Source: an uncultured virus (IMG/VR IMGVR_UViG_3300045970_000330)
Taxonomy: Duplodnaviria; Heunggongvirae; Uroviricota; Caudoviricetes
Length of the DNA: 57,290 nucleotides
Strand: one strand, 5' to 3'
Virus record (IMG/VR): IMGVR_UViG_3300045970_000330
The stretch's first letter is position 1. Every line of letters begins with the position of its first letter. The notes beneath the pieces were generated by a model that did not search any database, was not told the DNA's origin, and worked only from the letters and a program-made list of their open reading frames with translations. Both the position numbers and the translations under genes were made by a program. Below, piece by piece: positions 9,714-57,290 of the stretch.

Positions 9714-9759
9714 TAAGTAATTTCTAAAGCGGCGCCGCAGCGCTTAATCTGCGGCACTT

Positions 9760-9950: not shown

Positions 9951-9982
9951 GGGGAGTAGCCATATGGTGCTCCCCCTTTTTT
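9951..9982 (+). terminator. Intrinsic terminator
   Basis: GGGGAGTA..TGCTCCCC stem followed by a T run. Confidence 0.8.
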
Positions 9983-10651: not shown

Positions 10652-10698
10652 CACATCGTGTGTCTTGTCACAACGCTTTACTATCTCTAGGAGAAGTT

Positions 10699-10890
10699 AT
10701 GGAACGCAAGAACATCAGTGAATTTCTCGGGCGCAAGCGCGCTATCGAAAAGGCGATCCGCTACGGTTATGGGCACGCTGAACTCTGCTCCATGCTGGAC
10801 GTGTCCCACGGGACCATGAGTCGCCTGCTGCTTGCGCTGTTTGGGCAGAATCTCACGCAGATCCGTGCAGAGTGGGGCATTGTAGCCTAG
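10699..10890 (+). CDS. Small helix-turn-helix protein
   Basis: AELCSMLDVSHGTMSRLL; AGGAG RBS; upstream TTGACA and TGTGTCTTGTCACA operator. Confidence 0.65.
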   Translation: MERKNISEFLGRKRAIEKAIRYGYGHAELCSMLDVSHGTMSRLLLALFGQNLTQIRAEWGIVA

Positions 10891-10896
10891 AACACG

Positions 10897-10983
10897 GCTG
10901 GGGTGCCGCAGAGGTCTACCGGACGGGATTTGTAACCCCGCAGCGAAAGCTAGTCGCAGGTTCAAATCCTGTCCCCAGCTCCA
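10897..10983 (+). tRNA. Atypical tRNA-Thr(UGU) with a long variable arm
   Basis: GCTGGGG/CCCCAGC-T-CCA, CGGGA-TTTGTAA-CCCCG, V-arm AGC-GAAA-GCT and GCAGG-TTCAAAT-CCTGT. Confidence 0.8.
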
Positions 10984-12021: not shown

Positions 12022-13167
12022 ATGCTTGCAGTTCAAGACTATTTACGAGCCCCTGGACATACCCTAGAGACACTCACCGCAGACTACGCCATCAAAGTGC
12101 GGGTAGACGAATACCTTCGGGTTGCTGCCCTCAATTACAACCAAATTGAATCCGACATGAAGCAGCCCATCTGTCAGGAATGTCGGGGGCTCATCCTGGC
12201 GCTGGGAACTTGGGATGTATTGTGCCTGCCGTTCAAAAAATTCAGCAATTTAGGTGAGTCATATCTACAGGAATTTGACTGGACTAACTTCTGCGCTTAC
12301 GAGAAGCTGGATGGGACCCTCATATCCATTTACTATCATCCTCAGCATGGATGGCAGATAGCTACCCGGGGCGTTCCTGACGCCTCAGGACCCATTGATG
12401 GCTCGGGGATGACCTTCAGGACACTTACACTGTTAGCCCTCAAGGAAATGGGGTATGACGGTCCTTTAGGATGGGAGCGGTTCTTCGCCCAACTCAAACC
12501 GCGCTTTACCTACCACTTTGAGCTAACAGCGCCCGAAAATCGCATAGTTGTTGCATATTCTGAGCGTAAATTGTCACTTCTTGCAGTCAGGGACAGTTTA
12601 TCCCTAAAAGAGCTGGCATTATCGGGGTTCCCGCACCTAAATCCAGCAAAACTGTATGAATTTTCCTCAAAGGAGCAGCTTCTGGAGGCTGCTACCCTCA
12701 TTAATCCCATAGAGCATGAGGGTTTTGTAGTAAAGGACTGGGCAGACAGGCGCCTAAAGATCAAATCGGAGGCTTGGTGCCTCGCTAGTAAGTGCCGGGA
12801 CTCCCTCGGAGCATCCAGATTGAATCAATTTGAAATGATTTTGAGCGAAAAGCAGGACGATGTTAAGTCGCTACTGCCCGAGTTCGTTGTTAAATCCATG
12901 GAATTGCTCGAAACTGACATGATGCTGCTGCTACAAGCGGCTAAAAACAGCTGGTTACGCTATAGATTCGTGGATAACCAGCGGGATTTCGCCCTTTACA
13001 TCAAGCATCTTCCATTTGCTCATCTACTTTTTGAGCAGCGTAGGGCTCCGAAGCCGGATTTTAACACTGAAATATTCCTTGATATGGCACGCAGGAATCC
13101 GCGCAAGGCTTTGGAAATGATTGACAACACTACTAAGCTGCTATTCGCACAAACTCAGGTGGCGTAA
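12022..13167 (+). CDS. T4 Rnl1-like RNA ligase
   Basis: ECRGLI, PFKKFSN, motif I EKLDGT, FELTAPENRIVV, EGFVV and RLKIKS. Confidence 0.92.
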   Translation: MLAVQDYLRAPGHTLETLTADYAIKVRVDEYLRVAALNYNQIESDMKQPICQECRGLILALGTWDVLCLPFKKFSNLGESYLQEFDWTNFCAYEKLDGTLISIYYHPQHGWQIATRGVPDASGPIDGSGMTFRTLTLLALKEMGYDGPLGWERFFAQLKPRFTYHFELTAPENRIVVAYSERKLSLLAVRDSLSLKELALSGFPHLNPAKLYEFSSKEQLLEAATLINPIEHEGFVVKDWADRRLKIKSEAWCLASKCRDSLGASRLNQFEMILSEKQDDVKSLLPEFVVKSMELLETDMMLLLQAAKNSWLRYRFVDNQRDFALYIKHLPFAHLLFEQRRAPKPDFNTEIFLDMARRNPRKALEMIDNTTKLLFAQTQVA

Positions 13168-13790
13168 TGGACTTTTTTACGAGTGACCTACATTTGGGAC
13201 ACACATCAATTATTGAGTGGTGTGTAAGACCGTGCAGCGATGTAGAAACCATGCATGAAATGCTAATTGAGCGCTGGAATACCGTCATTACACCCCGGGA
13301 CCGTGTATGGGTGCTGGGTGATTTACTTATGGCGCCCGCAAATAAAAAGAAAGAACTGGAAATCATCCAGCGCAGGCTTGAACCCATCGGTAGATTGAAT
13401 GGTGAAGTCCATTTGATCCCAGGCAACCATGATCGTTGCCACAAGGATATTTACAAAGATGGGGCAAGCTGGGAACAGGTCTATCTGGATGCGGGAGTAA
13501 CCAAAATTCATCCACCAACCGTGCAAATCGAGGTTGTAGACGAAGATGTGACATGGCACATCCTTATGAATCACTTCCCCTACGCTGGTGAGCAGGCTGG
13601 GGATGATCGCTATGAGGCTCTACGTCCTGATAGGAAGCAGGCGTTCAACATGCCTCTGCTACATGGGCACGTGCACGGCACCTGGGTTCAGCAGGGCAGC
13701 ATGCTCAATGCAGGGTGTGACGCTCACGGGTGGTATCCAATCAGTATGGAGACTGTTATTGCACGGCTCCGTCCTTACAAAACGATTTAG
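13167..13790 (+). CDS. Calcineurin-like metallophosphoesterase
   Basis: SDLHLGH, LGD, GNHD and HGHVH; translationally coupled to the ligase. Confidence 0.93.
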   Translation: MDFFTSDLHLGHTSIIEWCVRPCSDVETMHEMLIERWNTVITPRDRVWVLGDLLMAPANKKKELEIIQRRLEPIGRLNGEVHLIPGNHDRCHKDIYKDGASWEQVYLDAGVTKIHPPTVQIEVVDEDVTWHILMNHFPYAGEQAGDDRYEALRPDRKQAFNMPLLHGHVHGTWVQQGSMLNAGCDAHGWYPISMETVIARLRPYKTI

Positions 13791-22184: not shown

Positions 22185-22832
22185 TCCAGAATTATGCCGC
22201 CCCGCATGAGTGCTGCATTTGAATAACATTTACCCCTTAGAGAGTACCACCCAGGACACCCAACTACACAACCTTGTGTAACTAGCCTGTTCGATAATAC
22301 ACCCACGTTCACCAATGGGCGAACATGACATAGCAGCCCGCTAGAGGCACGGTAAGGCTGGATGCTAGGTAAGCCTACCCGGGTAATACCCACCCCGTGT
22401 AGGGGTCTTGTAGCCCCGTAAAGGGCACGTATGGATACGACTACCCAAATGGATACGCCTATCCCCACAACTACACAACACTGTGTATGTGCAGGTCGTT
22501 ATACGGGTGCCCAGGTGTTCGGATGTGGACACCACGTTTATAGGGGACTTACGGGGAATAGCTACCCGGTGTGGGACATGTCACAAAGTGTAGGTGTGTG
22601 GGTGGGTGGTGTGGTGGGAGGTTGGAGTCAAGGTCGGAGTCAAGGTGGACCGCCCCGTCCTAAGTAATATACGCAAAGGGTTTGCGGCAATTCTATACCC
22701 AGCCTCGTTTCTTTCCTTTTGAAACGGAACACGAGTTATCAATCCTTCATTCCTTCATTTTTTTATTTCCCTGAGTCTAGGTGTTCACCATCCATTCCCT
22801 ATCCACCTTCACTCTACTATCACGAGGTAACG

Positions 22833-22937
22833 ATGTCCGCCGCCGTCCTGTCCGCCCTTGTCCCTGTCCGATGGTCCCTAGTCCTTTGGTCTGGTTCGGT
22901 CCTGTCCGCCGCCGTCCTTGTCCTTGTGTCCTTTTGA
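22833..22937 (+). CDS. 34-aa hydrophobic peptide
   Basis: GAGGT RBS before the ATG. Confidence 0.45.
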   Translation: MSAAVLSALVPVRWSLVLWSGSVLSAAVLVLVSF

Positions 22938-22944
22938 GGTCCGC

Positions 22945-23361
22945 ATGATCCGCCGCGCCGTCCTTGTCCTTCTGTCCCTGTCCGCCCTTGTAGCGGTCCT
23001 TGTCCTTGTGTCCGCCCTGGTCTCCGAGTGCAGAGTCTTTAACACTCATAAGGACGCCGCCCTTGTTTCCATGTCCGCCCTTCTGGTGGACGCCGCCGCG
23101 CGCCCTTCTGTGATGTCCGCCGCGCGCCGTGTCGTCAAGGGCGCGGGCGCCGTGTCCGCCCGTGTCCCCGTTAAGGGCGCCTCGTACGATCTAGCGGCGG
23201 GCGCCCTTCTGACCTATCAGGACGGCGGCGCGGTCCTTGTGTCATCTGTATGGATGGCAGACAAGGACGGCGCGCCCGGTAGCGTGGTCTATATCGGCGC
23301 CGTGTCCGTTCCTGTCCCTGTCCTTGTGCCCGTTTCCGCCCTTAAAAATTTCAATGAGTGA
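22945..23361 (+). CDS. Hypothetical membrane-anchored or secreted protein
   Basis: GAGGT RBS; MIRR followed by a long hydrophobic segment. Confidence 0.55.
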   Translation: MIRRAVLVLLSLSALVAVLVLVSALVSECRVFNTHKDAALVSMSALLVDAAARPSVMSAARRVVKGAGAVSARVPVKGASYDLAAGALLTYQDGGAVLVSSVWMADKDGAPGSVVYIGAVSVPVPVLVPVSALKNFNE

Positions 23362-23449
23362 TCACCAGGTCATGATGCAATTTGCATCATACCTTCACCG
23401 GGCGCCCGTGCGCGCCCTTTTCGGACCTCGTGTCCGCCGGAGTTATATC

Positions 23450-24448
23450 ATGTCCCTGTCCGCCCTTACCCTGTCCCTCACGGCGCCCGCCGCCGCCCTT
23501 CCCTCGGATGCATCCGACACGGCGCGCCCTTCTGCCCTGTCCATTGAATCCGCCGCCGTCCTGTCCGATACCATGCGCGCCGCCCTTTGCGCGCCGTTCA
23601 AAGATATTTCAAAGGACCGCGCCGCTAATATCGCCATCCAGGGCGCCGCCCTTCATCCCGCCGCCGCCGCCGCCGCCGCCCGTGGTATCGGATGGTACGA
23701 GGCAATGCCCGCCGCGCCCGTGCTCATGATCGGCGCCGATGTGTCCGCCGCCCTGTCCGCCGCTATCGGCGCCCTGTCAATGAGTGTTCAGGGCGCCGCC
23801 GCCGCCGCCTATACCATCCGCCGCTCATGTGCCCTTGTAATCCGCGCCCTTGTGTCCCTAGACGCCGCCCGTTTCCATCCGTTACTCGAAACGGGCGCCC
23901 TGTCCGCCCGGGATGCAGTATCCGCCGCCGCCGTCCTTGGGATCATGCCCGCTGTTGAATTTGGCGCCCTGTTAGATCGCTGGATGACCAAGGACCGCGC
24001 CGCCGCCCGCGCCCTTGCCCTGGACGCCGCCGCTCGAAAATCCGCCCTTGCGTCCTTGCGCAAAAATTGGGAACGGGCGCGCAAAGATGAAGGGTACAGC
24101 GCGCCCGATAAGGACAAGGACGCCGCCGCCGATGACAAGGACGCCGCCGCCGATGTCCAGACCGCGCCCGCGCCCTTACCATCCGCCGCCCTGTCCGCCG
24201 CCGTCCTGTCCGCCCTGGTAATGAATCCCGCCGCCCTGTCCGCCGCCCTTGGAACACTGGACGCCGCCGCCCTTGTCATCCTGTCCGCCGCCGTGTCCGC
24301 CGCCCTGGTGGATGCATCCGCCGCCGCGCCCGCGCCCGATGTCCAGACCGCGCCCGCCCTTGAAACGGCGCCCGTGTCCCTGGACGCCGCGCCCGCTACC
24401 GCCGCCGCGCCCGCCCGCCGCCGCCGTCAGACCGCGCCCGTAGAATAG
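23450..24448 (+). CDS. Ala-rich 332-aa hypothetical protein
   Basis: GGAG RBS; non-repetitive islands such as RGIGWYE, FHPLLETG and LRKNWERARKDEGY suggest a real protein. Confidence 0.7.
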   Translation: MSLSALTLSLTAPAAALPSDASDTARPSALSIESAAVLSDTMRAALCAPFKDISKDRAANIAIQGAALHPAAAAAAARGIGWYEAMPAAPVLMIGADVSAALSAAIGALSMSVQGAAAAAYTIRRSCALVIRALVSLDAARFHPLLETGALSARDAVSAAAVLGIMPAVEFGALLDRWMTKDRAAARALALDAAARKSALASLRKNWERARKDEGYSAPDKDKDAAADDKDAAADVQTAPAPLPSAALSAAVLSALVMNPAALSAALGTLDAAALVILSAAVSAALVDASAAAPAPDVQTAPALETAPVSLDAAPATAAAPARRRRQTAPVE

Positions 24449-25983
24449 GCGCCGCCCTTGTCCCTGTCCTGTCCGCCCGCCGCCCGTGTATCGCGTCAAT
24501 TCGAGCGATACACGGGCGGCGCCCTGTCCGCCCTTGCGTTAAACGGCGCCGCCTATACATCGGGCGCCGTTTACCAGAAGGACGGCGGCGCCGTGTCATG
24601 CGCGCCCGCCCTTGTGTCCCTGTCCTGTCCTTGTGAATCACTCATAAGGGCGGCGCGCCCGTGTCCCTGTCCTTGTATCGTCCACCAGGGCGCGCCCTTG
24701 TCCGTTCCTATGATGTCCACCAGGGCGCCGCGCCCTTGTGACCGCTACCAGGGCGCCGCCCTTGGTCCTGTCACGCCGCCGCCCTTCTGTCCCTATACCG
24801 CGCCCTTGTCCGCCGTCCTTGTGACCGCTACCAGGGCGCGCCGCCGTGTCCCTGGTAGCGTCCAGGGCGCCGCCGTGTCCCTGTCCTTGTCCTTGTCTCA
24901 TATCGTCCAGGGCGCGCCGTGTCGCGCCGCCCTGGTGATCATATCGCGGCGCCCTGGTAGCATCGGGCGCCCTGGTGAACTAGGTATTTCTTACCTAGTT
25001 CGTTTTTATAGCGTGACACCTGTCACGCCGCGCCGTGTCGTGTCCGATACCGCCGCCGTTCGGTCCTTGATTACTCTATGGATTCGAGCATAGATTTTTG
25101 ACATCAGATATTTTTATCCGAATTTAGTTTTTTTCGGGTCGCGTTAGCTCTGTTCATGGGACCATATTCCAATCCTGGAATGATCCTGGGATTTTTGATT
25201 CCCAGGTAGGCGTGACACCTGTCACGCTGTCCCCTGATTCACGCGATACCGCGCCATTCGGATAAAATAATATCTACCATCATCTTGAGGGCTGGGATGC
25301 TCTAGGATGTGGTCTATTGCAAGGGCGTTTTTGTAGTGCTGGAATGTCGTGAGACATACCTAGAATTACACTAGCGGGCTCGACCTATGTTTACGGCGTG
25401 TGTCGTAATACATGGGCGCCGTAGGTTTGCTGATTTCTAGCAGCCTATGCCATACCCTTGTAACGCTTAGAATAGGGCGTGACACCTGTCACGCTTGATT
25501 TCTAGTGATTAGATGGACCCTCCCATGCGCCGAGGAATCGGATAAAGGACAGGGATGATGACATAGAAATAAGGGAAAGCAGAGGCTCTAGCGGGCGTCA
25601 ATTACAGGTATTCGGAGGATACTTGGGTCACGCTCGTGAGTTAAACCAGAGGTTGGCAGCCTCTACCTTTGCAATCGCCTCCCATATGCTAGGTGTAAGG
25701 ACCACCGATAAACCTAGCGGGCGTGGGCTGCACTCTGTTTTAGGACAGCTGGTAGCCTGGGGACTATCATGGGCGCCCCTAGTCTTGGATCTATTTCCAG
25801 GGCTGGGGCGCCGCCCCTAATCCCCGATGTATCAATAACTTTTTAGGTCACGAGAGCCGTATCCATTTGGTTTGGAGTGCGGCTTTGCTTTTATTTAGGG
25901 TGAAGCTAATTCAAATCGTGGATGTTCCCACGCTTATTAGTCTTGCGATAAGTCGCGGTAGTCGCGGCTTATGGGAGGGCTTT

Positions 25984-32266: not shown

Positions 32267-32902
32267 ATGTCCAGAACCGTAACCTATTTCCCATACTCTG
32301 AGCTGCCCCCGGATATTCAGGAGAAGGCTCTGGAGAACTTCATAAAGTCTCCCATGTGGATGACTTGGAGTGATGACTGGATCAGCCAGGACATCACGGA
32401 AATGTCACTCCAGACACTTACCGAGGCGGGCTACGAGGTCAACACCAGCAAATCCTCACGAGGGGTGAGAACTACACATGACATAAATTGGTCTTGTTCT
32501 TACAGTCAGGGTGACGGCTTTAGCTGGGCATCAAAGATCGACCTTCCCGTGGTTGCCAAGCGGCTGCTCTCAGAGGATGACTTCCTAGCTGTTGAGGATG
32601 TGTTGTGCAATATATCGGCATCTACTCGACAAGTAGGGCACCACAGTAGGAGCACCGTATTAGAGTTCGAGGATGAAGACCCCGAGCCCGAAACTGGATT
32701 TGACATGGTGCTTCAGGAAATGCGCCAGCGTATCATTAAAGAACTAGAAGCCGCGATTGAATCAGATATTGATGACATGGAGTCGCAGCTATCGACGGAT
32801 GGCTATGCTGAGATTGAATTTCAGCAAAGCGCAGAACGAGCACTTGAAACCCTTCAAAACAATGACCACATCGAATTTGATGAGGACGGAGAACTGCAAT
32901 GA
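32267..32902 (+). CDS. Highly acidic hypothetical protein
   Basis: RTVTYFPYSEL..QEKA, SQGDG and C-terminal EFDEDGE; GGAGG RBS. Confidence 0.8.
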   Translation: MSRTVTYFPYSELPPDIQEKALENFIKSPMWMTWSDDWISQDITEMSLQTLTEAGYEVNTSKSSRGVRTTHDINWSCSYSQGDGFSWASKIDLPVVAKRLLSEDDFLAVEDVLCNISASTRQVGHHSRSTVLEFEDEDPEPETGFDMVLQEMRQRIIKELEAAIESDIDDMESQLSTDGYAEIEFQQSAERALETLQNNDHIEFDEDGELQ

Positions 32903-33426
32903 AGATCATCGTGATGGTTGGTGTAAGTGGTAGCGGTAAGTCCACATATATCAAGAACAACTATCCGAGCGCCTACGTGGTGAGTGCGGATCATTTCTTC
33001 GAGGAAATGGCGGATCGTAGCGGATCGACCTACCCCAAGGTGTTCAGTGTTGGCTTGCTGACCCTTGCTCATGATCAGTGCCAACAGCGCTTCATGCAGG
33101 CAATCAACAATCAGATACCTCTGATCGCTGTGGATAACACGAATATCCGCACCCGTGACCGAAAGGTCTACATGATCATGGCTCGCTCTATGGGCTATGA
33201 AGTAGAGGTCCATATCCTTGGTCCTCGCCACCCCAAGGATGCCCCTCTGAGTGACAAGGATCGTCGGGACTACCTGGACATGTGCTGGAAGCGGAATACT
33301 CATGGGCTTACCTATGACCGCATCGAGAAGCAGTTCAATCAACAGAAGATGCCCGCTGGCGTATTCGGGTATGAGCAGACAACTTCATTCCTGCGTCCTC
33401 TGCCCGAGCTGATCGAAGCCATGTGA
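32899..33426 (+). CDS. P-loop kinase, polynucleotide-kinase-like (AAA_33 type)
   Basis: IIVMVGVSGSGKST, VVSADHFF, IAVDNTN and RNTHG. Confidence 0.85.
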   Translation: MKIIVMVGVSGSGKSTYIKNNYPSAYVVSADHFFEEMADRSGSTYPKVFSVGLLTLAHDQCQQRFMQAINNQIPLIAVDNTNIRTRDRKVYMIMARSMGYEVEVHILGPRHPKDAPLSDKDRRDYLDMCWKRNTHGLTYDRIEKQFNQQKMPAGVFGYEQTTSFLRPLPELIEAM

Positions 33427-36849: not shown

Positions 36850-37154
36850 TGACTCCCTCAGGTTTCGACCTACTTTGCTTAGCTGAGCGCGGCTTTGCAC
36901 AGGAGCCAATGGGTGATCAATACATCGACTTTGAACATTACCCGGGAGGGTTTGGAGCTACTGAGGAACAAGATGACCGCCGAGAACGAATCACATTCAA
37001 CTCTGAGGACGGGACATTCTACGCAGTAGCTGCACACGTGGACCTTGATGGTAATTATTGGTTTGAAGCCAACTATAACGGTCCTTCCCTACTAGATGTA
37101 TTCGATCAACTTACACTGTGCAGGCTTACAGCCCCCCGAAAGGAGAAGCCATGA
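36849..37154 (+). CDS. Acidic hypothetical protein
   Basis: TAATG and ATGA coupling between the AAA and vWA genes. Confidence 0.75.
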   Translation: MTPSGFDLLCLAERGFAQEPMGDQYIDFEHYPGGFGATEEQDDRRERITFNSEDGTFYAVAAHVDLDGNYWFEANYNGPSLLDVFDQLTLCRLTAPRKEKP

Positions 37155-38644
37155 CCCCGATCAAAAGTGGACCCCAGCCCATTGATGTGCCCCAGGAGTG
37201 GCAGGAAACGCGTCACGCTCTTATGTCGCATGTTCCCTTCCTTTCATCCGCCCTGGGCGTCCTACCCCTACTAGCGGTCCATGACGCCCCCTACCCGGCT
37301 TACACGGACATGAAGTCCATCACAGTCTGCCCGAGTCGTTGGGATGAGCTGGAAAGGAACACCATCGAGCGTGGGTTGCCGTTCTTCCCTACCAAGGCAT
37401 CCAGCCGCGCCGTGTTGTTGCTTCATGAGTGTGGTCACATTGTGTTCCGTAGCGATACCCGCAAGGGCACTCGGGAACACATGCTGTGGGTGGAGGCATG
37501 TGATAATGCCATCAATGAGTTTGTAGTGGATGTATTCCGCATGCCGCCCTTCAATTACCGGGGCGATAAGCTGGACAAGCTGGAAGCCGCCATGAACGCT
37601 ACTGGATCTTATCAGAAGCGCTTTCATGGTATGACTGCTGAGGAAATCTACGAGATCCTCAAGAAAGAGCGTGATGATAAGCAGAAGGCTCAGAAAGATC
37701 CGAGCCAGAAGCAGAAGCCGGGAGAACCACCCCCGGAAGGTGGCGATCCCCAACCCGGCGAAGGTGATCCCGAAGAACAAGAAGGTGAGGGCGACCCTAG
37801 CGAACAACCTGGAGAGGGCGACGAATCGGAAGGCGGGGATGACGGCTCCGGGGGCAGTGGCAACGGCACCGACATTTCCGAAATGTTTGGTAACGACTTT
37901 GGGGACGCCATCCCTGAGTCCGGTATCCCCGATGACCTGGGCGAGCTAGTTGAGAATGCCATGAAGGATTATGCCGAGCGTCATGGAGATAAGCTGCATA
38001 GCCCTAACGGATCAGCTACTACCCGAGAACTTTCGGAAGCCGCCAAGAAGCCCCCTGTGCTGCTGAGTGAGATTCTGCGAAAGATTCGGGACGTTGTGCA
38101 GGAAGTCAGCTACTCATATCGCAGGGTTGGTAAGAATGATACGTGGGGCATGCGTCAGGGCTTGCAGATGAGGATGCCCGCGCCGTCCAACACACCATCT
38201 TCCATAGTTAAGGAGCTGTGCATCGTAGTAGACGCCAGTGGCTCTATGAGTGATGAGGAACTGGCATGTGCTAACCGCATCATCAATGATGCATTCAAGC
38301 ATGTGAGAAGTCACAAAGTTCGCAGGCTTGTCTTCACCAGCTCTGTAGTGGAAGATGTGGACTTAACACCTATCACCAAGGCGCCCATCCATCATACGGG
38401 TGGAACGTGTATCAGTTCAATTATTGACTACATGGAAAAGCCCACTCTGAATCAGGATGTGAAACGCAATAATAAGCCAATCAAACCCAGCGCCATCATC
38501 CTGATCACTGACGGCTATGACTCCCCGGATTCCATCAAGCGGTTTGAGTCCTGGAAACACTTGGGGAGACTTCGCACTATTCTGATCAAGAACCCCAACG
38601 GAGTTTTCCCAGGTGTGGTGTTCCATGCCGATGTTGTAGGCTAG
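37151..38644 (+). CDS. HEXXH metallopeptidase-like plus vWA domain protein (DUF2201-like MoxR partner)
   Basis: AYTD, LLHECGH, ACDNAIN, acidic Gly-rich linker, MIDAS VDASGSM, GGT and ITDG. Confidence 0.88.
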   Translation: MTPIKSGPQPIDVPQEWQETRHALMSHVPFLSSALGVLPLLAVHDAPYPAYTDMKSITVCPSRWDELERNTIERGLPFFPTKASSRAVLLLHECGHIVFRSDTRKGTREHMLWVEACDNAINEFVVDVFRMPPFNYRGDKLDKLEAAMNATGSYQKRFHGMTAEEIYEILKKERDDKQKAQKDPSQKQKPGEPPPEGGDPQPGEGDPEEQEGEGDPSEQPGEGDESEGGDDGSGGSGNGTDISEMFGNDFGDAIPESGIPDDLGELVENAMKDYAERHGDKLHSPNGSATTRELSEAAKKPPVLLSEILRKIRDVVQEVSYSYRRVGKNDTWGMRQGLQMRMPAPSNTPSSIVKELCIVVDASGSMSDEELACANRIINDAFKHVRSHKVRRLVFTSSVVEDVDLTPITKAPIHHTGGTCISSIIDYMEKPTLNQDVKRNNKPIKPSAIILITDGYDSPDSIKRFESWKHLGRLRTILIKNPNGVFPGVVFHADVVG

Positions 38645-38741
38645 TGTCCGCCCCTATGCACGGAGTCGGAACCATACCATCAACCGCAGTGCATATCTGC
38701 ACTGATCTTGTTCAGACCCACCCCTCAACCAAGGAGCAACG

Positions 38742-40704
38742 ATGTCTCGCCTTGTTCAATGCAAACACTGTGAAGCCTGGATCGACCTCGATTTCGGGGC
38801 AGATAGTCCCGCCGAACACGCGGACGCTGAGGGAACACAGGAAGATCCGCGCTCCCCTGGCGATTGGGACGATGTTTGCGACCAATGCAACTAAGGGAAG
38901 GGACTGCGCGGCGGTCCTAATTCCTGATCCTGTCCAGGAGCCTGACCATGTTCTACCTAATCCCTATTGCGCTGGTTGTCCTGCTAGTTGGCGGTGCGCT
39001 GGCTAACTCTGAACCCCGACAAGACAGTCTGTAACTGTCCAGCAGCCGCTGGAACCCATCGAAAGGACCAACCATGAAAATCACCTTGCTTCTCAATTAC
39101 CCCGACTATGCCGCGCCTGAGTTTGCCCCCGGCTTGGAATTGCATGGCGGGTTGGTAGAGATCGTTCAGTTCAGCGACCTATTCCAAGAGCATGAAAACC
39201 TTGAGCCCTATGTGAAGCACAAGATTTCCTGCGAGTGCGACCAGGACGATGACCACGACGACCCCAACTGCGATTGCGGTCTGTTCGCCGCTTCTCAACT
39301 CGTCCGTCCGTAGCTGTCCATCTGCACGACCCCCGAAAGGATGACCCGATGAACTGGAACTACTCAAAGCCACCGATGGACGGAAGCCCCTTCCTCGCCG
39401 TGTTCAGCACCAAGACGGGCTGGGATTATTACCCCTGCTTCTTGGACCAGGAAACCGGAATCCTCTGCTGGTTTGAGGATGGCGGTCCCATCGGCTACAC
39501 CGTTGATGAAATGCGGGGATGGGTTGCCATCACCCCGCCCACCCCCGTCTAGCTTTTGTCCAGGAGGACAACCCATGACCACCGAGAAACCCGCCTTCGG
39601 TTCCTTCCCCCACGATGGCACTCCCGAGTGCCTATGTAACGAGTGCGCGATGGTTCGACTAGATGCCGCTGGGATCGAGTGCCCATCCCATGTTGCCCCT
39701 GGTTACTTCGAGGCGATCACCAAGGGATTCAATCACGCTGGACTTGCTGAAGCCATCGAGAAGGGCAAAGCCGAAGCGAAACGACTGGAGGATGTGCAGC
39801 GGGTTGACCCTGCCGACCTCCGCAAACCAATGACGATTTGAATATGTCCATAATTGGGAACCACAACCAGAGAACCTATGAACGCGAAAACCTACATCGG
39901 CAAGGACAGCGGGAAGATGCACCTAGAGGTCAACGGGATCACCTTGGCAACGGAAGGTGATGTTTGCCGAGACGCCACGCTCAGGGGCGCAGGAGTTGAT
40001 ACCTGGACCGTGGACGATTTGATCCGTGTCGTGAACCTCATCAACAACCGAGTCTCACAGCGCATTTATGAACTGGAGGTAGAAAACAACTCCCTCCTTG
40101 CCTCTCTGCACCACTCAAAACCATCCGAGTAGCACCTGTCCAGAACGAGGAACCAATGAACCAACGCTGCACCCACATCGAACCGGATGGGTTCCACCAT
40201 TGCGGGAGTTACGCCTTCAACCTGGGCAAAGACGGAATCGCCCAAGGAACCCTTTGCGATGTTCACTACTGGCAGTCTAGGGTCACTGAGCTAGAGGTAA
40301 AGGAACAAACCGCTTATGAGCGTGGGTTTAAGGATGGCGGGCTTGCCTTTGCTAGAAAATTTTAACTTCTGGTATCCCTGACACCCACCCTCCATATCCT
40401 GCTTACCTGAGCGTAACCTTGAAAGGACGCCATGAACAGAATCTTACCAAATTATGAAGCCCTATCTGCGAGAGCCGCAGCAGTAAACGGAGAACTTCAG
40501 GCAATCGAGCGGGAGGTTAACAAGAATTTCTTCCGCACGGATGATGAGCCAACCCCGAGGTGCTGCCCCAAGTGTGGATTTACAGCCTTGAAATACGGCT
40601 TCCCGCAATGGACAGCTACCAGCAACGAAGACCCCTTGAATGTAGGCATCCTTTACGAGTTCCAATGTGCGAATGAGGACTGCTGCATTTCGTTTTGGCT
40701 GTAG
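38742..40704 (+). CDS. Array of tiny unrelated genes (38742-38894, 38948-39034, 39074-39313, 39349-39552, 39575-39841, 39878-40132, 40156-40365, 40432-40704)
   Basis: Most have their own RBS; six successive junctions carry TGTCCA. Confidence 0.75.
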
Positions 40705-40806
40705 CTGTTGGGACAAGTCACACAACAAATATTCAAAGTTTTACTGGCGCCCCGACTCCGGGGCGTTATCATTTCCACCACAGCACCACTCACCAGGAGA
40801 TAGCCA

Positions 40807-41946
40807 ATGGCTACTGCTTACACCGAACCCCGCATCGAAGCACTTGAGAAGTATGCGGAACATCCCCACCCCGAATCTCGCCCGGGAAAGTATCTGCTGG
40901 CACTCATGACCAAGCTGGGTGTTAAGACACTTCCCACTTGGCGTGAAATGTTTTCCAGCCACTTCGCCTATGCCCTCCCCGCAGCGAGCCTGGGTGAAAT
41001 GGCTGTATTCAATGACCGAACATCATGGTCTGACACGCAGGGGTCATCAGGGCGCCTGCTGAATGAGATCAGCGAATACTTCAGTGGAGACAACATTCTC
41101 AATCCCTATGCCGAGATCGAAATCAAGCAGGTAACCAATATTCTGTCGGCACTGTTGGTTGATCGAAAGCTTTACAACCCTATCAAGGGCTTCGTAGTTA
41201 CCGACCTAAACGCGCAGGACACCGATAAGACCAACAACACCTACCAGATTTTTGATGGCAGGCATCGAGCTATCGCCATGGCAATCCTCTACGGGTTCAA
41301 GGTGCGCATCCCCATTTGGGTTGATGAAGAACCCATCGTGAAGGCAACGGGCGCCACTCTGATGATGAATCAGAACCGCCAGATCCGTAAGTTTGAGAAC
41401 GTGGCTGTCAATGGACTGAAGACCGCCCACATGTCGCCCACTACGGATAAGCAGTATGCCAGTCACAAGGGCAGCAAGCAGCGCATCGCACGCTGGGTTG
41501 CTTACCAGACCCATGTAGCCAAGAACTACAAGGTGTTCCCCAAGAGCGCCCTGGTGGTCACGGAGCGCCCTACACGCCTTATGCACTCCATGAGTGCAGT
41601 CAATTACCAGAACGCCGTAAACGCGATGCTGGGCGCCCTGTCGGAAGAAGCCCTTATGGACTTCTCACAGGCTAAACCACTCATCACTAAGGGGCTGGGC
41701 ATATTGTCCGCTATGTTCGTTGAGCTTCCCAAGGCGAACAAGGTTCCTGACTTCATCGCTTACTTCAATGCCTACAGTTCATTCATGTGGGGCACGGTTA
41801 TTGGAGAGTCCATGATGAACGACAAGGTTACGGACATCGAAGCCGAGGGTAAGAAGTTGGCGGTCAAGGCTGCCAAGTTCGTAGAGAAGATCGGTGAGGA
41901 TGCATATTGCCGCACTCCTGTGGTAGAGCTGCTGGCACAACTCTAG
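40807..41946 (+). CDS. ParB/Srx (DndB/DGQHR-like) fold protein, paralogue 1
   Basis: YQIFDGRHRAIAMAILYG and MNQNRQIRKFE. Confidence 0.75.
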   Translation: MATAYTEPRIEALEKYAEHPHPESRPGKYLLALMTKLGVKTLPTWREMFSSHFAYALPAASLGEMAVFNDRTSWSDTQGSSGRLLNEISEYFSGDNILNPYAEIEIKQVTNILSALLVDRKLYNPIKGFVVTDLNAQDTDKTNNTYQIFDGRHRAIAMAILYGFKVRIPIWVDEEPIVKATGATLMMNQNRQIRKFENVAVNGLKTAHMSPTTDKQYASHKGSKQRIARWVAYQTHVAKNYKVFPKSALVVTERPTRLMHSMSAVNYQNAVNAMLGALSEEALMDFSQAKPLITKGLGILSAMFVELPKANKVPDFIAYFNAYSSFMWGTVIGESMMNDKVTDIEAEGKKLAVKAAKFVEKIGEDAYCRTPVVELLAQL

Positions 41947-42009
41947 TAGGTCACCTTCCCCTTGCCCTCAGTGCTTATACTAGGCTGAGGGCTTTATCAT
42001 AGGAAACAC

Positions 42010-46888: not shown

Positions 46889-48253
46889 ATGCCTACTACC
46901 GCCAAGAAGAACACCCGCAAGAAGGTTGTTAAGAAGGTCGCCGTTGTTGAGAGTGCCGAAACCACGGTGCCCAAGATCACCCGCACCAAGAAGGAGAAGA
47001 CAGCTGCTGTAAAGGAAGCTGTTACCCGGGCAACGACCACGCCCCGTGAACGCTACCTTGAGCAGCTGTGCTTGAAGAACACCCTGACTATTCCTCCCAT
47101 TGAGGAAATGTTCTCTCGCCAGATTGCTGAGGGCTTGCAGCCCCTGCCCCTTAGTAAGCTGGCGGCGTTCTGCTCTAACAGCGGATGGATTGCCACCAAG
47201 GGCGCCTTGGGTAAGTGTCTGGATGAAGTGACTAACTACTTTGGGGACATCAACTATTTGAACAAAAGCGCTGAGATTGACCCGAAGCGTGTGGAAACGG
47301 TGATCATCAGTCTACTGGAAACTGGCAGTCTCACTCACGAGCCTAAGGTAGCTCATGTGACTAACACCCCCTCGAATCTCACCTATGAAGAAGATGTTTT
47401 CCAGGTGTGGGATGGGCGCCACCGGGTTGTTGCTATGGCTGTGATCTACGGCATTGATGCTGTGATCTATGCGAAGGTCAATAATATCGGCTATGCTAGG
47501 GCTCTCCTGGACTGTGTTATCAGTAATGACACCCGCCAAATCAAGAAGCTGGAGAGCATCCACCACCAGGGTTTGAAGGACGGCGATGACCCTGTAGTTG
47601 CCTACGTCCGTAAGAAGGGCAAGATGCTCAACATTGTTAAGTGGGTTGTATCCCAGGTGCGTCCAGACATGGTGCCCAACCCCAGCCTAAACCCGGTAAA
47701 TCGCATCAACATCGTAGAAAAGGTGAAGGGCGCTCCGGGTATGACGAGTATTAATTTCCAGAACACCATCATCAACGCCCTCACTCAGCTGGGCGCCCGC
47801 TACAGCCAGGATCGGTTTGATAAGCGCACTAAGGATTTGTTCAATGATGTCACTGCTACTATCGAAGCTGTTTACATGGCTATCAGTGCTCATAGTGACA
47901 ATACCAAGACCAGCCTAGCTTGGAACTCATATTCTAGCCCTGTGATTGGCAACATCATTGGAAGGGCTATTGATTACTGGCGGGTAAACAAGATCACAAT
48001 GAGCACCCAGGTAGTTGAGGACTTTGCTAATCAGTTGGCGGCTGCCGTGTGCAACTACATGGACACTGTTCCTGCTACCTACGCACAGAATCCTTCAGGC
48101 ACTTTGAAGCCGCAGTTGCTCATGTTTGCAGATACCCAACTCGGCATCATCTTCCCTCATGTGGAAGAAGAAGGTGCCGATGAGGATATTGTGGTTACTC
48201 CTATGTCCACCCCGGAAGAACCCACAGCTGTCACTGAAACCTTTACCTACTAG
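46889..48253 (+). CDS. ParB/Srx (DndB/DGQHR-like) fold protein, paralogue 2, with a Lys-rich N-terminus
   Basis: FQVWDGRHRVVAMAVIYG, SNDTRQIKKLE and MTSINFQN; the last two are shared with 40807. Confidence 0.75.
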   Translation: MPTTAKKNTRKKVVKKVAVVESAETTVPKITRTKKEKTAAVKEAVTRATTTPRERYLEQLCLKNTLTIPPIEEMFSRQIAEGLQPLPLSKLAAFCSNSGWIATKGALGKCLDEVTNYFGDINYLNKSAEIDPKRVETVIISLLETGSLTHEPKVAHVTNTPSNLTYEEDVFQVWDGRHRVVAMAVIYGIDAVIYAKVNNIGYARALLDCVISNDTRQIKKLESIHHQGLKDGDDPVVAYVRKKGKMLNIVKWVVSQVRPDMVPNPSLNPVNRINIVEKVKGAPGMTSINFQNTIINALTQLGARYSQDRFDKRTKDLFNDVTATIEAVYMAISAHSDNTKTSLAWNSYSSPVIGNIIGRAIDYWRVNKITMSTQVVEDFANQLAAAVCNYMDTVPATYAQNPSGTLKPQLLMFADTQLGIIFPHVEEEGADEDIVVTPMSTPEEPTAVTETFTY

Positions 48254-49231: not shown

Positions 49232-50439
49232 ATGATGTTTTATCCCACAATCAAACACTCCCTCTTTAACGACACCTATACCGAGGAAATGCTTCGGGCT
49301 GCCAAGTATATGCTGGAGACAACCCGGTTCTTTCGGGCTGTCTCTGGCAGCGGGACAACTCCACGCAGCATTTACTATCTTCCCGAGCAATTCGCCATGT
49401 GGGAACAATCCCGGGGCACCAGTAAGTCTTTCGTAAAGTGGCTAGCACCCCTATTCACCAATGCTACGCCCAAGAATACTGCTGCTGTTATTTTCGGGAA
49501 AGACCCATCCCCCATTCAGATGCTCGGGGATCGCTCCGTCAGGGCTTACATCAGGCATCTGCTCTACGGGCAAGGATGGTCGATTGAGGCGGTATCTCAA
49601 CACTTGGTGGATCAGCATGGGTATCAATACACTAGCGCCCGCCCTATGATTCGTAGAATTGTAAGGGAAGAAGAAGCCAGCGGTAAATCATCCGCCTACT
49701 ACAAGGACAACGACGAACAATCCCTATTCCCTGAAGGTGTTATTCAACCTCAAGCATAAGGACCGCAACCATGAGCGTAGAACCACTTGAGCCCAAGGCT
49801 CCCATCGGAAAGCCCACCAAGATTACGGCTACCGACATCATCATTGAAACCATCGTAGATAATCCCCAGCTATTCAGTGGGCGCTGGTGGTCTATTGCCG
49901 CCCTTCGGGATGAGCTGATTCATGAATACGATCTGCTACGCCTTCAGAAAACCTATGGTGACATGATCAACGCTACCCAGGCGATCATCCACTCCATCAC
50001 GACTTGTGGGTGGATGGAATTGGACGGGGGCGCAGGCTTGGATTGCAAATTCAAGGTGCGCAATATGCCCCTGGTTAAGCCGGATAACGTCCGTGACTGC
50101 TACATCGTGATCGACCACTACCGGGATGTCATGCGGAACTGGAAGGATGTATGCCTTACCCTGCATGACACCAGCATGGTGCTGCGGTCCATGAAGATGT
50201 CAACGGAACAAGCGCAGGAAATGCTGAACAAATCAGTAGCATTGGCGGTTATGTATCGTAACCAAGCCAAGGTTTACTACGAGCAGCTGAAGGATAAGAA
50301 ATTGATTAAGGGTGAGTTCCACGATCCCAAACCTAAGGATGTTATGACGGTTATCGAAGATCCCAAGCATGTGATGCAAGTCTCCGAGTTGAAGGAATTA
50401 CACAGCCTGCTAGCCCACCAGGAGAACAGGAATGGTTGA
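49232..50439 (+). CDS. Two hypothetical genes (49232-49759 with possible HTH, 49771-50439)
   Basis: TTGACA at 49179 and GGAGG/AAGGA RBS. Confidence 0.75.
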
Positions 50440-51403
50440 CTACATCACTACCCTAAAGGGGCGCTGGAAAAAGAGTCACAGCATTAAGAAGCTTCCAATG
50501 CACCCCATTGAGAAAGACCCAGCCTTTGCGGAATACATTGGATACCTGAACTCTCCTGACACAGCTCGTTACGCTCTGCAAGGAATCCTAAGAGTGATGG
50601 CGCCCTGCACTTTGGGACAACTCACACCCCAGGCTGTAGACCACGCTATAGACAAGCTGACAGCTGATGGCTACAAAGCTTCCAGTGTGGATCGCTATAA
50701 ACGCATCTTGAAAGCGTTCCTGAAGTTCAGTCAGGAACGTGGGCACGTTAGTCGTAACGTGGCGGTGTCAGCTAAGAAAGTGGATACCCGGCAGGTTAAG
50801 AAGGCACGCCCCGCCCGGGTTCCTGATGAAATTAGGGATGCCCTGGACGCCCACTACCAGGATGCCTCCAAGTCAACCGTGGGTGAAATGTTCTTATGGG
50901 CTGCCATAAAGACAGGTCATCGAATCTCCGAAGTAGCGATGGCAGTAGCTGAGGACATTGTTCTTGAGCCCCTAGCAGGGGGCGGATACAAGCCATACAT
51001 TTGGTTGGGCACTAAGACTGACAAACGCTACGTAGCACTACCTCAGTGGGTTACTCCAGCTCTAATCTTCATTCTGGAGGCTGCTCATGGGGATGCCCGC
51101 TACCCGTTAGTTCATCTTCGGGGCACCCCGGTGGTGTTTGAACCCAAAACAAAGTCTACTCAGACGCTGCGTGCTGTGGAGGCTCGCAATATGTTCTATC
51201 GAACACAGATGGAGTTGTTCGGTAAGCACGTGGCTAACCCTCATGCTTTTCGATCCGATTTCATCAGTCGTGTGCTGCATGCCCACCCTGACTTCCTAAC
51301 TCTGGAAATGCTTGCCAAGCATTGCGGGCATAGCGCTGATGTTCTTCGTGAATACTATGCCGATCTCCTGGGTGCAGGTCCAGCCAACATTGAGGAAATC
51401 TAA
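50432..51403 (+). CDS. Tyrosine recombinase
   Basis: SAM-like N-domain and catalytic set TGHRISE, TKT, HAFR, GH and YY. Confidence 0.9.
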   Translation: MVDYITTLKGRWKKSHSIKKLPMHPIEKDPAFAEYIGYLNSPDTARYALQGILRVMAPCTLGQLTPQAVDHAIDKLTADGYKASSVDRYKRILKAFLKFSQERGHVSRNVAVSAKKVDTRQVKKARPARVPDEIRDALDAHYQDASKSTVGEMFLWAAIKTGHRISEVAMAVAEDIVLEPLAGGGYKPYIWLGTKTDKRYVALPQWVTPALIFILEAAHGDARYPLVHLRGTPVVFEPKTKSTQTLRAVEARNMFYRTQMELFGKHVANPHAFRSDFISRVLHAHPDFLTLEMLAKHCGHSADVLREYYADLLGAGPANIEEI

Positions 51404-54523: not shown

Positions 54524-57290
54524 ATGACCCGTAAACATGACGATCTCCCCTTCAAGTCCAGGACTCAGATTCGTGAGTTCTCTACACTCGCTGTGTATGA
54601 CACATATCTGAGGGGGGCAGCTGGGCAGATTTTCCGAGAGAACGTCAAGCTGGAACCCCTTGAGGGCTATCGCAAGACTGCCTTCTTTAGCAACCTAGGA
54701 TTGAAGGAAGATCCAGGTTTGGGCGTCACTGTCTTCCATAACGTGCGAGCTAAGGTTCATAAGGACACCGTAGCCTTTCACCCGGAAGCTGATCCCCATG
54801 GGGCTGAAATGATCTACATGACCATTCACGGTGTAACACAAGGCTATGTTGAGCCTTTGGACTAGGAGCATTTATGAAAACTTGGGATGTTTACCTCGCA
54901 CATACAGCTACGGAATATGTAGGCAATATCGAAGCAGCTACTGAAGACGAAGCAATTTCCAGGGCGTGTGCCATGTCACAAGCGCGGCTATGCCACAACT
55001 GCTCAGATCATCTGGATTTAGGGGATGTTGATTTCGATAATTCTGTAGCAGAAGAAAGGTAAACAATGACTATCAAATCGTTTTCCAAGGAATATCTACA
55101 GGCTGTTCTGTTTGGGGATGCCCCGGGCTTAGTTGAAACTTCAATCGTGGATACATCCAGGTGGAGTATCCATAAGAGCATGATTTTCAAAGCGGATGGG
55201 CTGCACTATGAGACTGGATATTCAGAAGGTGCTACGGAGCAGCAGGATGAGCGTCCCTTTGAGTTTGATGCCGATGAAATTGACTGTATTCAAGTAGAAG
55301 AAGTTTCAACTGTAGTGACGGTTTGGGTTCCGGTGCGAAAATGACAGGAGAATATGGCATAACTCTGAACCACTGCAACAGGGCATCCTGCACGCTGCTA
55401 GTTGATGCCCTGCAAGATAAGATCGTAGGACTAGAAAAAGGTTGGAGTGCGGCAAGCCAAACCATCCTACGGCTAGAAGCCAGGAACGACATACTGTATG
55501 CGGATCTGCATGACCGCAATAAGTCCTGGGAAGCGCTCAAAAATTTGCTGTCTCCCCCCGCACTAGAAGCTCGTGTCGCTCGACTCAAGGAAGCCCTTGA
55601 AATCCTATGCCCCTGTGAGTGTGAGCCCAATTCAACCATTAGGTGTTCCCGCTGCGCTGCGCTTTCCATCTGATCTTTTAACAAATTGCCACTATTTTCT
55701 AAAACTTCTGGTGGCAGTCGATTTTATCCAGGAGATACCTATGCCAGAACTTCGTGACTACCTAGCAGCAACGATGACAGTTCCAGTTGAAAAGGATGGC
55801 TGTATCCCACAAAGTATGGCTCTTTGGCTCATGGATACTCAGCCTCCAGATTGGGATGCACACCGCCTCCAAGCCTACAAGTGGTGGGCAGAAGCCGAGG
55901 CGAGGTTTCGATACCTCCGAGCCGATGCCATGCTCCGTGTCCGTGATGAAGTTCCCATCTAGCTTTTGCTCTGAGGATGCCCCATGACCGATGACCTAGA
56001 CCTCAAATACAATTCCGAGCCGATATGCCCCCATTGCGGTAAGACCTATGGCGATGCCTGGGAGATCAACTTTCATGGTGACATGGAGGGCTCAACCGAA
56101 ATTACCTGTGGAACCTGCGAACAGGATTTCTTCGTGGAGCGTAATATCGAGGTTACCTACACCACAGCCAAGATTCAGTTGAAAGACTGATACTCAGGAG
56201 ATACTCATGAAGGACTCAGAACTGTGGCTGCACGATGAAATTGAAGGGTTGAAGAATAGCCTAGAAGCCTCACAAGCCCGTGTAGAGGAATTGGAGATTG
56301 AAGTTAACCGTCAACACGAAGGGTGGACTGACTGTCACCAAGTTCTACAGGATGCCGCCTGTGAAGCCCAGCGCTACCGCAAAGCCCTTGAGGAAATCGC
56401 CAAGCATTCCGTATTCATGGCTGACGATGCCCCGGCGCTTGCCCGTGAAGCCCTCAACCCCACTAAGTATTGTCCATAACGAGGAACCAATGAGCACAGC
56501 AGACCAATGCAAGGTGTGTGGTAAATGGGTTCGACCCGCCCAAGCAGACCACGACTTCTGCCCACTTACGGAAAGACAGGCTTTGGAAGTAATGGCGGAA
56601 GCCTTGTGTAAGATCGCTCACCTGAACTCTATAGTCTGTCCCGAAGCGGTCAGCATCGCCGTGGATGCCATCGAATCAACCCATTACTACGAATTAAACT
56701 GATCTTGTCCAGGAGAACCCCATGGAACGCAACATACACATGGAGGCTTACAACGCCAAGCGGGTGAAGCAACTCGAAAAGATGCTCCGGTCCTGCCGCG
56801 ATGCGATGAAGTTCGCCCCCGGTCCTACCGACTGGTCACACATGGTCGAAGCCATCACCAAAGTCCTGAAACCGTAAATGTCCAGGAGCCATCATGGAAA
56901 CTCAGGTTATTGAGAACGGTAAGACCATTGCCATTCAAGCATTACAATGGTGCATTTTTAATAATGATGCAACTAAGGCAGGTGCCGCGAGAGCAGCAAT
57001 CATGACCCTGTTTGGTAAAGAAGTGGATGCAGCTATTGTCCTTGAATTTCAGAAATCACTCTAGCCTAGGAGAACCCATGCCCTACTCCCTACCCTCACA
57101 CTGTGAGCCCCTTGATGGCATTGAAGGCATATGTCAGGATTGTGCTAAAGCCTTGCTGGTTCGTGTTGCTGAGCTATCTGAAGTGGCTAGCGGGAACCGT
57201 TTGCGGGTATTGCAGCAGCGTAATCACTATCGTGATGCCCTTGAACGCATCATGTTGAACTCCAATACGAACATTCCTGCTCTAGTCATT
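54524..57290 (+). CDS. Array of small hypothetical genes (54524-54865, 54874-55062, 55066-55344, 55341-55673, 55741-55962, 55984-56190, 56207-56479, 56490-56702, 56722-56877, 56894-57064, 57078->end)
   Basis: Most have AGGAG/GAGG RBS; several Zn-ribbons and coiled coils; TGTCCA at three junctions. Confidence 0.75.

Follow-up and report, generated by a model that had tools for sequence, protein, structure and literature searches.

Unknown phage functions reside mainly in small accessory genes, many of which are thought to serve in host takeover or counter-defence and whose movement between unrelated phages is poorly understood. The question is raised by a stretch of 57,290 nucleotides (nt) from an uncultured virus of the Caudoviricetes (IMG/VR record IMGVR_UViG_3300045970_000330), referred to as the window, in which the hexamer TGTCCA stands at six consecutive junctions of a row of tiny genes. 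What does this hexamer do at the gene boundaries? An original prediction, made from the letters of the window, had proposed the capture or shuffling of gene cassettes, with a tyrosine recombinase encoded at 50432 as candidate enzyme and an RNA processing signal as the alternative. In the current analysis TGTCCA is viewed as a conserved linker at which single-gene modules recombine, its core being both the common crossover point and the edge of the translation leader, a reading to which we give an about even chance. The linker is common to many uncultured phages that otherwise share no DNA, six compared genomes having no protein in common, and the module content is almost entirely different between phages. 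As judged from alignments of relatives, genes appear to be gained, lost and replaced singly, with TGTCCA as the point at which homology begins or ends. The genes on either side of homologous modules are unrelated, and the arms and leaders of the junctions assort independently across the core.

TGTCCA junctions in the window and in other phages

The window belongs to a large uncultured phage of a pond metagenome and is covered by Logan contigs of 13.5 and 105.7 kb. It encodes a class II ribonucleotide reductase, PolA, five tRNAs, RNA-repair-like genes and a weak Xer-like tyrosine recombinase. The six copies of TGTCCA noted before (38931, 39036, 39315, 39557, 39845 and 40137) are all present on the coding (+) strand. 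Five of them lie 1-4 nt after a stop codon, as had been described (1, 1, 4, 3 and 4 nt for the cores at 39036 to 40137), and the core at 38931 lies 36 nt after one, with a small hairpin-like stretch between the preceding stop and the core. The next ATG follows at 11-32 nt (11, 32, 28, 12, 27 and 13 nt for cores 1 to 6). An open reading frame (ORF) of 50 amino acids (aa) lies upstream of the first core and one of 90 aa after the first array. The small proteins of this array have no matches in Pfam or PHROGs, and no mutual similarity is detected among them by blastp (E<1e-4), in keeping with their earlier description as unrelated. TGTCCG is present after the stop of the vWA gene at 38645, as also described. 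A further one-mismatch core right behind a 7-bp hairpin, and the occurrence of G at position -5 in 8 of the 9 cores of the window, are additions of the current analysis; positions are numbered such that the last base of the core is +5. The first array is made up as follows.

38645..38650, + strand: TGTCCG, a one-mismatch core directly 3' of the stop of the vWA/DUF2201 gene (37118-38644)
38687..38704, + strand: terminator-like hairpin with a 7-bp stem and a 4-nt loop, at the head of the array
38703..38714, + strand: TGATCT-TGTTCA, the commonest left arm with a one-mismatch core, upstream of the gene at 38742
38742..38894, + strand: module gene, 50 aa, with CxxC pairs and no family match
38931..38936, + strand: core 1, cctGATCC-TGTCCA-GGAGcctgaccATG, 36 nt past a stop
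38948..39034, + strand: module gene, 28 aa, hydrophobic
39036..39041, + strand: core 2, GTAAC-TGTCCA, with a long leader that has cccatcgaaAGGA at its end
39074..39313, + strand: module gene, 79 aa
39315..39320, + strand: core 3, GTAGC-TGTCCA-TCTGCACGACCC leader class
39349..39552, + strand: module gene, 67 aa
39557..39562, + strand: core 4, TAGCTTT-TGTCCA-GGAGG
39575..39841, + strand: module gene, 88 aa
39845..39850, + strand: core 5, TGAATA-TGTCCA; in pond metagenomes an alternative junction starts right after base 39850
39878..40132, + strand: module gene, 84 aa
40137..40142, + strand: core 6, start of the 22-mer TGTCCAGAACGAGGAACCAATG, identical in other phages
40156..40365, + strand: module gene, 69 aa, the final gene of the first array, with no core behind its stop

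Three more junction cores, which were not in the earlier list, have been identified in a second row of small genes, together with decayed copies.

55725..55730, + strand: TATCCA-GGAG, a decayed core
55960..55972, + strand: TAGCTTT-TGCTCT (TGCTCT at 55967), a decayed copy of the TAGCTTT-TGTCCA junction (compare 39550-39562)
56471..56476, + strand: core 7, TGT CCA TAA, the final codons of the gene 56207-56479, followed by the 22-mer leader
56706..56711, + strand: core 8, cTGATCT-TGTCCA-GGAG
56879..56884, + strand: core 9, ccGTAAA-TGTCCA-GGAG

Over the whole window TGTCCA is not enriched (42 copies found, with 34.3 +/- 5.7 expected). Among 1000 dinucleotide shuffles, only 2 reached six copies on one strand within 1212 nt, and the six cores sit in about 370 nt of spacer, where by our arithmetic about 0.1 copy is expected.

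The 22-mer TGTCCAkAACGAGGAACCAATG, of which the window has 2 copies, was used to scan viral and metagenome contigs, and five loci (L001-L005) were retrieved. The DNA match of L001 and L002 to the window is limited to 23-27 nt, none of the ORFs of the five loci resembles an ORF of the window, and each locus bears its own row of TGTCCA at small-gene junctions. Three further junction strings led to dozens more metagenomic phage contigs with arrays, with GC contents of 52-68%; the array loci include L001-L006, L008, L012, L015, L019, L022, L025, L060-L062 and others. About 12 of the 20 loci of one scan and several of another were single chance matches devoid of arrays and were left out. L060 carries 21 copies of TGTCCA on one strand and 0 on the other, 18 of them with the full junction signature in 6 kb.

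Junction-type sites are all on the coding strand. In five whole array-bearing phage records (G001-G005, four of them 93-100% complete) the junction-type copies are restricted to one array per genome, against two in the window. An excess of the hexamer across these five genomes reflects codon usage on the opposite strand, and a genome-wide junction role was rejected on this account. When six genomes were compared at the BLAST level, no protein cluster was found in more than three of the six and none included the window. The nearest cultured relatives of PolA, the ribonucleotide reductase and a terminase are distant and of mixed hosts, and a search of viral contigs with the vWA protein found no direct relative.

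Neither positions 37100-42000 of the window nor L060 has a DNA match to known phages, and short junction queries against known phages gave chance-level hits only (E ~3-4). Among 185,579 bacterial and archaeal species genomes the 22-mer had 0 hits, and a 17-mer plus start had 17 hits, none in an array, against about 13 expected by our arithmetic. A keyword search of the literature with phage, intergenic and mosaic terms returned no description of a TGTCCA junction motif, and among the matches listed for TGTCCAGGAG in full-text literature, all were unrelated to phages by title and abstract.

Anatomy of the junction

A set of 137 non-redundant junctions from 24 loci was assembled. Inclusion required a perfect core and a stop that either precedes it by 0-8 nt or comes directly behind it; a Shine-Dalgarno sequence and a start that opens an ORF of 25 codons or more had to follow. 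These criteria condition all the statistics of the set. At position -5 a G is found in 80% of the junctions (about 76%, by our arithmetic, when all 24 GATCT junctions are taken out). Other bases are nearly absent from the left arm, namely G at -4 and -1 and C at -3. Gaps of 0, 1, 3 and 4 nt between stop and core predominate, and a gap of 2 nt is never seen. The stop is fitted round G(-5), as TGA at gap 3, TAG at gap 4, G-TAA-c at gap 1 and G-c-TGA at gap 0.

About 10 left-arm classes recur, such as aacTGATCT, aaccGTAAC, aagTAGCACC, acGCTGA and agTGAATA, as do about 10 Shine-Dalgarno leaders, such as GGAGnnnnnnATG, GAACGrrGAACC(A)ATG, TCTGCACGACCCyCGAAAGGA.. and TCTGGAGGAACCATG, and any left arm pairs with any leader. 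The core abuts the Shine-Dalgarno sequence (TGTCC-AGGAG) in 34 of the 137 junctions and otherwise lies up to about 47 nt upstream of it. The distance from core to start, which is ATG or GTG, ranges from 8 to 59 nt with two broad modes, and the whole spacer is mostly 17-45 nt. The core itself is highly constrained, 137 perfect copies being counted at junction-like sites against 13 one-mismatch copies under slightly different criteria.

Folding of 80 nt at each of the 137 junctions gave a mean z of 0.17 for RNA of the top strand and 0.06 for DNA of the bottom strand, with z < -2 in only 6% of the junctions. The junctions show no excess structure and therefore no attC-like sites, RNase III sites or terminators, the array-head hairpins excepted, which agrees with the earlier remark that no attC hairpins are evident. 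Hairpins are present at array heads and at a few junctions only. No sigma-70 promoter-like site was detected at the junctions of 38300-40900, and a promoter of this kind would not fit into most of the spacers. An Rfam search of the whole window at gathering thresholds detected tRNAs only, and at permissive E-values nothing was detected at the junctions of 38500-40500 and of L060.

Four further candidates were considered and rejected. The likeness of TGTCCAGA..GAGG to a PyrR-binding loop has no support in the Rfam searches. For an antisense regulator, no intergenic CTCCTGGACA-like sequence was found in six genomes. RNA-RNA pairing was set aside as the one-mismatch variants show no wobble bias (3 wobble-compatible against 5 other transitions). 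Likeness to the DnaA box (TTGTCCACA) is ruled out because C at +6 is rare, at only 9%.

A non-coding element of 51-81 nt has been identified at the head of arrays in four contigs. It ends in a GC-rich hairpin (GGCGCGG CCC CGCGCC) followed by TCC-TGTCCA, and is better conserved than the neighbouring genes, the flanks differing otherwise among the four contigs. It may be an entry or control element of the array.

L001, 4805-4885: array-head element
L022, 3263-3343: array-head element
L003, 79-130, reverse complement: array-head element
L105, 2975-3030: array-head element

Two unusual arrangements of the core are also seen. L025 has two cores 37 nt apart (4451-4493) with only a perfect 10-bp hairpin between them, as in an 'empty' module, and L012 has a tandem partial duplicate, TGTCC-TGTCCA (3008-3018, core at 3013); both may be recombination scars. 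The reverse complement TGGACA is rarer than expected in the 137 module ORFs, with 4 copies against 11.0 +/- 3.3 in codon shuffles, the fraction of shuffles at or below 4 being 0.018.

Apparent exchange of genes at the core and its explanations

The proteins downstream of the 137 cores are largely unique to their loci: 97 are singletons, and 17 small clusters occur in an order that differs between loci. One of the clusters includes the 56-aa gene of the window at 56894-57064, downstream of core 9, which has homologues in the arrays of L006 and L060. The autonomy of the modules was assessed in 28 listed blastp alignments that pair homologous modules from separate loci. Over the 30 nt upstream of the 5' core the identity of these pairs is 0.13-0.53, mostly 0.13-0.43, which is about the random level, and in the 30 nt after the next core (10 rows with a next core in both partners) it is 0.20-0.47. 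The leaders of the closest homologous pairs are 0.77-1.0 identical, and unrelated N-termini are found behind identical leaders. The mutual information between positions -5..-1 and +6..+10 is 2.889 against 2.838 +/- 0.051 in permuted sets (P=0.16); within the arms it is far above expectation, 0 of 2000 permutations having reached the observed value.

Breakpoints were taken as the internal ends of high-scoring segment pairs in an all-against-all blastn comparison of 32 loci. Among the 3' ends, 22 of 119 fall at +5..+12 from the core in both partners, and for 13 of these the position is exactly that of the core's last base, +5; 13 of 140 of the 5' ends fall at -8..0. A random position has a 0.8% chance of lying in such a breakpoint window. 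G001 and G004 are collinear at 67-80% identity, and their arrays are wholly different from the last base of the first core onwards. In two pond metagenomes (X1 and X2) the assembly graph branches at 39821-39850. A variant contig there equals the window up to 39850, the last base of core 5, and continues with GGAGCCCGACCCATG.., a different leader and a different gene, although these contigs cannot tell whether the variant belongs to the same phage. The variant sequence past 39850 is found in none of the retrieved loci.

These results bear directly on the cassette capture or shuffling that had been predicted from the window. Gene order is not conserved between loci, the ends of alignments fall at the core more often than random positions would, and an alternative junction, for which a search had been suggested, is seen in the pond contig. 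The part of the prediction that is supported is the single-gene gain, loss and replacement with homology edges at TGTCCA; the part that is not supported is the tyrosine recombinase as its enzyme, which is taken up below.

In the mechanism that we propose, TGTCCA would be the invariant core of a strand-specific linker and each linker would head one small accessory gene. The linker would run from the last codon or codons of the upstream gene and its stop, with G at -5, through the core and a Shine-Dalgarno leader to ATG or GTG. Rows of such single-gene modules would form one hypervariable array per phage, and two in the window. Modules would be swapped between co-infecting phages, or between phage and prophage, through recombination within the short linker that they have in common, the core being the putative crossover point common to all modules; the logic would be that of the PeSL cassettes of T4-type phages, without promoter or stem-loop. 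The recombination may be carried out by general or short-homology machinery or by another factor, and probably not by the tyrosine recombinase of the window. Two reasons are proposed for the constancy of the core: it forms the fixed 5' edge of the translation leader of each module, and a module remains exchangeable as long as it retains the core.

Several points weigh against this mechanism. Homologous recombination normally needs far more than six nt, so that crossovers restricted to the core would hint at a more specific process. No RecT or ERF occurs in the five whole array-bearing genomes, which leaves these without a phage annealing protein of either family. The loci were ascertained by core-containing patterns, one of which fixed GATCT at 8 seeded real-array sites, and the genes were called by heuristic ORF rules and not by a gene finder. 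As the core is universal, blastn runs through it and the exact +5 offsets overstate the precision of the breakpoints. TGTCCA is not avoided inside module ORFs (6 copies against 6.3 expected), and apparently intact genes follow decayed cores in the second array, so that a role in expression is not demonstrated; taken together, these two observations mean that the hexamer alone is neither harmful within genes nor clearly needed for expression.

The first of the other explanations is dedicated site-specific capture, in which an enzyme of host or phage reads the asymmetric 11-nt sequence G-N4-TGTCCA and there puts in or takes out cassettes of one gene each. Candidates for this part would be a nickase, a topoisomerase-like enzyme or a new recombinase, and the system would be integron-like in function and mechanistically unrelated. 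Such a reaction would account for the near invariance of the six core positions (137 perfect against 13 one-mismatch copies), for the extra fixed G at -5 with stop codons fitted round it, for arms and leaders that assort freely across only 6 nt, and for breakpoints on the core edges with an alternative junction that begins exactly after the core. The TGTCC-TGTCCA of L012 at 3013 and the two cores of L025 37 nt apart are also in its favour. The apparent confinement of crossovers to 6 nt, with all six positions kept, leaves real room for a dedicated enzyme, though we consider one improbable.

The search for such an enzyme tells against it. The gene proposed in the original prediction is the following.

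50432..51403, + strand: tyrosine recombinase-like gene, not supported as the candidate enzyme

Its match to Xer-like proteins is weak (32 bits against cut-offs of 279-335), and it lies 10 kb from the array. Tyrosine (PF00589) and serine (PF00239) recombinases were matched in 0 of the five whole array-bearing records, by a search method that did find the GpA terminase, used as positive control, in the two genomes that have it. No protein cluster of the six genomes includes the window, and the junctions lack the inverted binding arms that tyrosine and serine recombinases need. An integron-like reaction by the tyrosine recombinase of the window is thus not supported. Integrases do adjoin the arrays of L002 and L012, and RecT adjoins that of L019; the two integrases look like ordinary phage integrases, and such neighbours are expected for the early regions of temperate phages. 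Site-specific capture by any enzyme has further to contend with the lack of a protein common to the array-bearing genomes, with junctions devoid of hairpins, with a hexamer that is not avoided in ORFs and with the absence of arrays from the 185,579 species genomes under two patterns, so that no host platform is seen. Neither circles nor excision products were observed, in assembled contigs that could not reveal them. We consider it improbable that phages of one or more uncultured host groups draw on a common pool of more than a hundred (indeed well over that number) tiny ORFans, moved as single-gene cassettes by a site-specific reaction at G-N4-TGTCCA. If true, this would be an integron-like viral gene-capture system lacking IntI and attC, whose genes possibly serve in host takeover or anti-defence.

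A second explanation, which we likewise hold to be unlikely, takes TGTCCA as a pure expression signal. It might act in RNA processing or insulation, as a translational operator, or as a stoperator-like site that binds, in one orientation, a regulator blocking transcription. Mosaic edges would then coincide with the core only through selection that keeps genes with their signals. In its favour, the core is found exclusively on the coding strand and invariably at the leader's 5' edge, it abuts the Shine-Dalgarno sequence in a quarter of the set (the 34 junctions mentioned above), and it is restricted to arrays of small, probably early genes. Passages of the reports on mycobacteriophage SAS and stoperators (PMC3203893, PMC9283540, PMC6550527) provide a precedent for short asymmetric junction signals that have roles in expression. 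The distance to the start, however, is not fixed (8-59 nt), and the compared phages have no conserved reader protein. The extended string occurs at about the chance level in bacterial genomes (17 against about 13), which argues that it is not a common host gene signal. Structure, an Rfam family, a sigma-70 promoter and a wobble-tolerant pattern of variants are all lacking, genes remain intact behind decayed cores, and the hexamer is tolerated in ORFs.

That chance, a by-product of codon usage or a duplicated gene family explains the junctions is already refuted: the hexamer is indeed not enriched across the window, and elsewhere in GC-rich relatives TGGACA is frequent on the strand that lies opposite to the array motif, which is read as codon usage (CTG GAC A), but all six copies sit in post-stop spacers, the flanked genes are unrelated and the arrangement recurs in dozens of unrelated contigs, this recurrence being decisive.

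Described systems and other features of the phages

The nearest described system to the proposed recombining linker is PeSL (promoter-early stem-loop), the mobile regulatory cassette of hyperplastic regions in T4-type phages, in which, according to passages of its description (PMC2839356), recombination between repeated promoter/stem-loop junctions reshuffles ORFans and even yields mini-circles. As far as those passages go (PMC2839356), the two share repeated junction elements that extend from the upstream stop to the Shine-Dalgarno sequence and start of the next gene, and that stand in hypervariable regions, before ORFans, at points of indel or replacement between related phages. PeSL is described there as having a full sigma-70 promoter and a terminator stem-loop and as belonging to the T4 superfamily (PMC2839356), whereas the TGTCCA spacers have neither promoter nor stem-loop. 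The TGTCCA linker is also smaller, has an invariant 6-nt core with G(-5), and spans phages that have no proteins in common.

The SAS (start-associated sequence) of Cluster K mycobacteriophages is, in passages of Pope et al. 2011 (PMC3203893), a 13-mer, GGGATAGGAGCCC, at a fixed 3-7 bp from the start in one phage cluster. It resembles the TGTCCA junction, as far as described there (PMC3203893), in being a short asymmetric repeat of one orientation in the non-structural half of the genome, at or overlapping AGGAG, and associated with varied gene families. The TGTCCA junction differs in its sequence, in its tie to the upstream stop, in the variable distance of 8-59 nt to the start and in its spread over unrelated phages. 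Cluster A stoperators, according to passages of two reports (PMC9283540, PMC6550527), are 13-mers found genome-wide that are bound by a cognate repressor, the specificity of this repressor diverging between subclusters. They too are described (PMC9283540, PMC6550527) as asymmetric sites in short intergenic spaces, oriented with transcription and present in more than 20 copies per genome. The TGTCCA sites, unlike stoperators, keep to a single array in each genome and do not vary between unrelated phages, among which no shared repressor is detectable.

Integrons are made up of IntI, attI, attC and Pc, and carry one-directional rows of single, mostly promoterless and unrelated genes with a short boundary core. 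A co-oriented array of single unrelated genes, with turnover of content between relatives, is found here as well. The differences are that no IntI or any other tyrosine recombinase occurs in 5 of 5 whole array-bearing phages, that the junctions have no attC-like imperfect palindromes, that TGTCCA heads each gene rather than trailing it, and that the carriers are phages and not chromosomes or plasmids. At the array heads, where an integron has attI and Pc, there are the hairpin at 38687-38704 and an element of 51-56 nt in four contigs, with no promoter identified. In nidoviruses, which are RNA viruses, the core of the transcription-regulating sequence, 6-7 nt long, is present at each gene junction and doubles as a point of recombination through template switching of the polymerase. 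A short core at gene junctions that coincides with a recombination point, a putative one for TGTCCA, is common to both cases, but nothing indicates template switching here.

The junction signal provides a searchable marker for such arrays in metagenomes. It defines what is exchanged as a single gene together with the leader, and offers a concrete sequence on which a reader or a cutting activity can be sought. Should the core prove to be the crossover point, the long-debated idea that phages evolve in modules through linkers could be tested beyond the T4 group. The linkers may, in addition, act as natural expression connectors that are independent of context.

Many module proteins have paired CxxC or CxxH motifs (window 38742-40704 and 55984-56702, and many other loci) and may be microproteins of a zinc-ribbon-like kind. 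A weak match to the Ogr/Delta zinc finger (E 0.003) is found for the gene at 40432-40704. Directly after the first array, the gene at 40807-41946 is paralogous to that at 46889-48253, inside the replication module, with 29% identity over 314 aa; neither has a match in Pfam, PHROGs or NCBIfam.

Elsewhere in the window, a 2.3-kb GC-rich stretch (22800-25100, GC about 0.60, with strongly negative AT skew) is a mosaic of the words TGTCCGCC, CCTTGTCC and GGCGCC. It contains dozens of imperfect direct and inverted repeat families and is open in several frames, with no convincing gene and no PHROG match. A cluster of five tRNAs (Ala, Leu x2, Met, Thr) is found at 8383-10983. RNA ligase-like, phosphoesterase and polynucleotide-kinase-like genes at 12022-13790 and 32899-33426 suggest an RNA-repair set. 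L001 encodes a ParB-HTH protein (1318-2127), an MT-A70 methyltransferase that is one module inside the array (5343-5993) and a TET-associated glycosyltransferase (8397-9332), and this gene content suggests that the phage probably hypermodifies its DNA.

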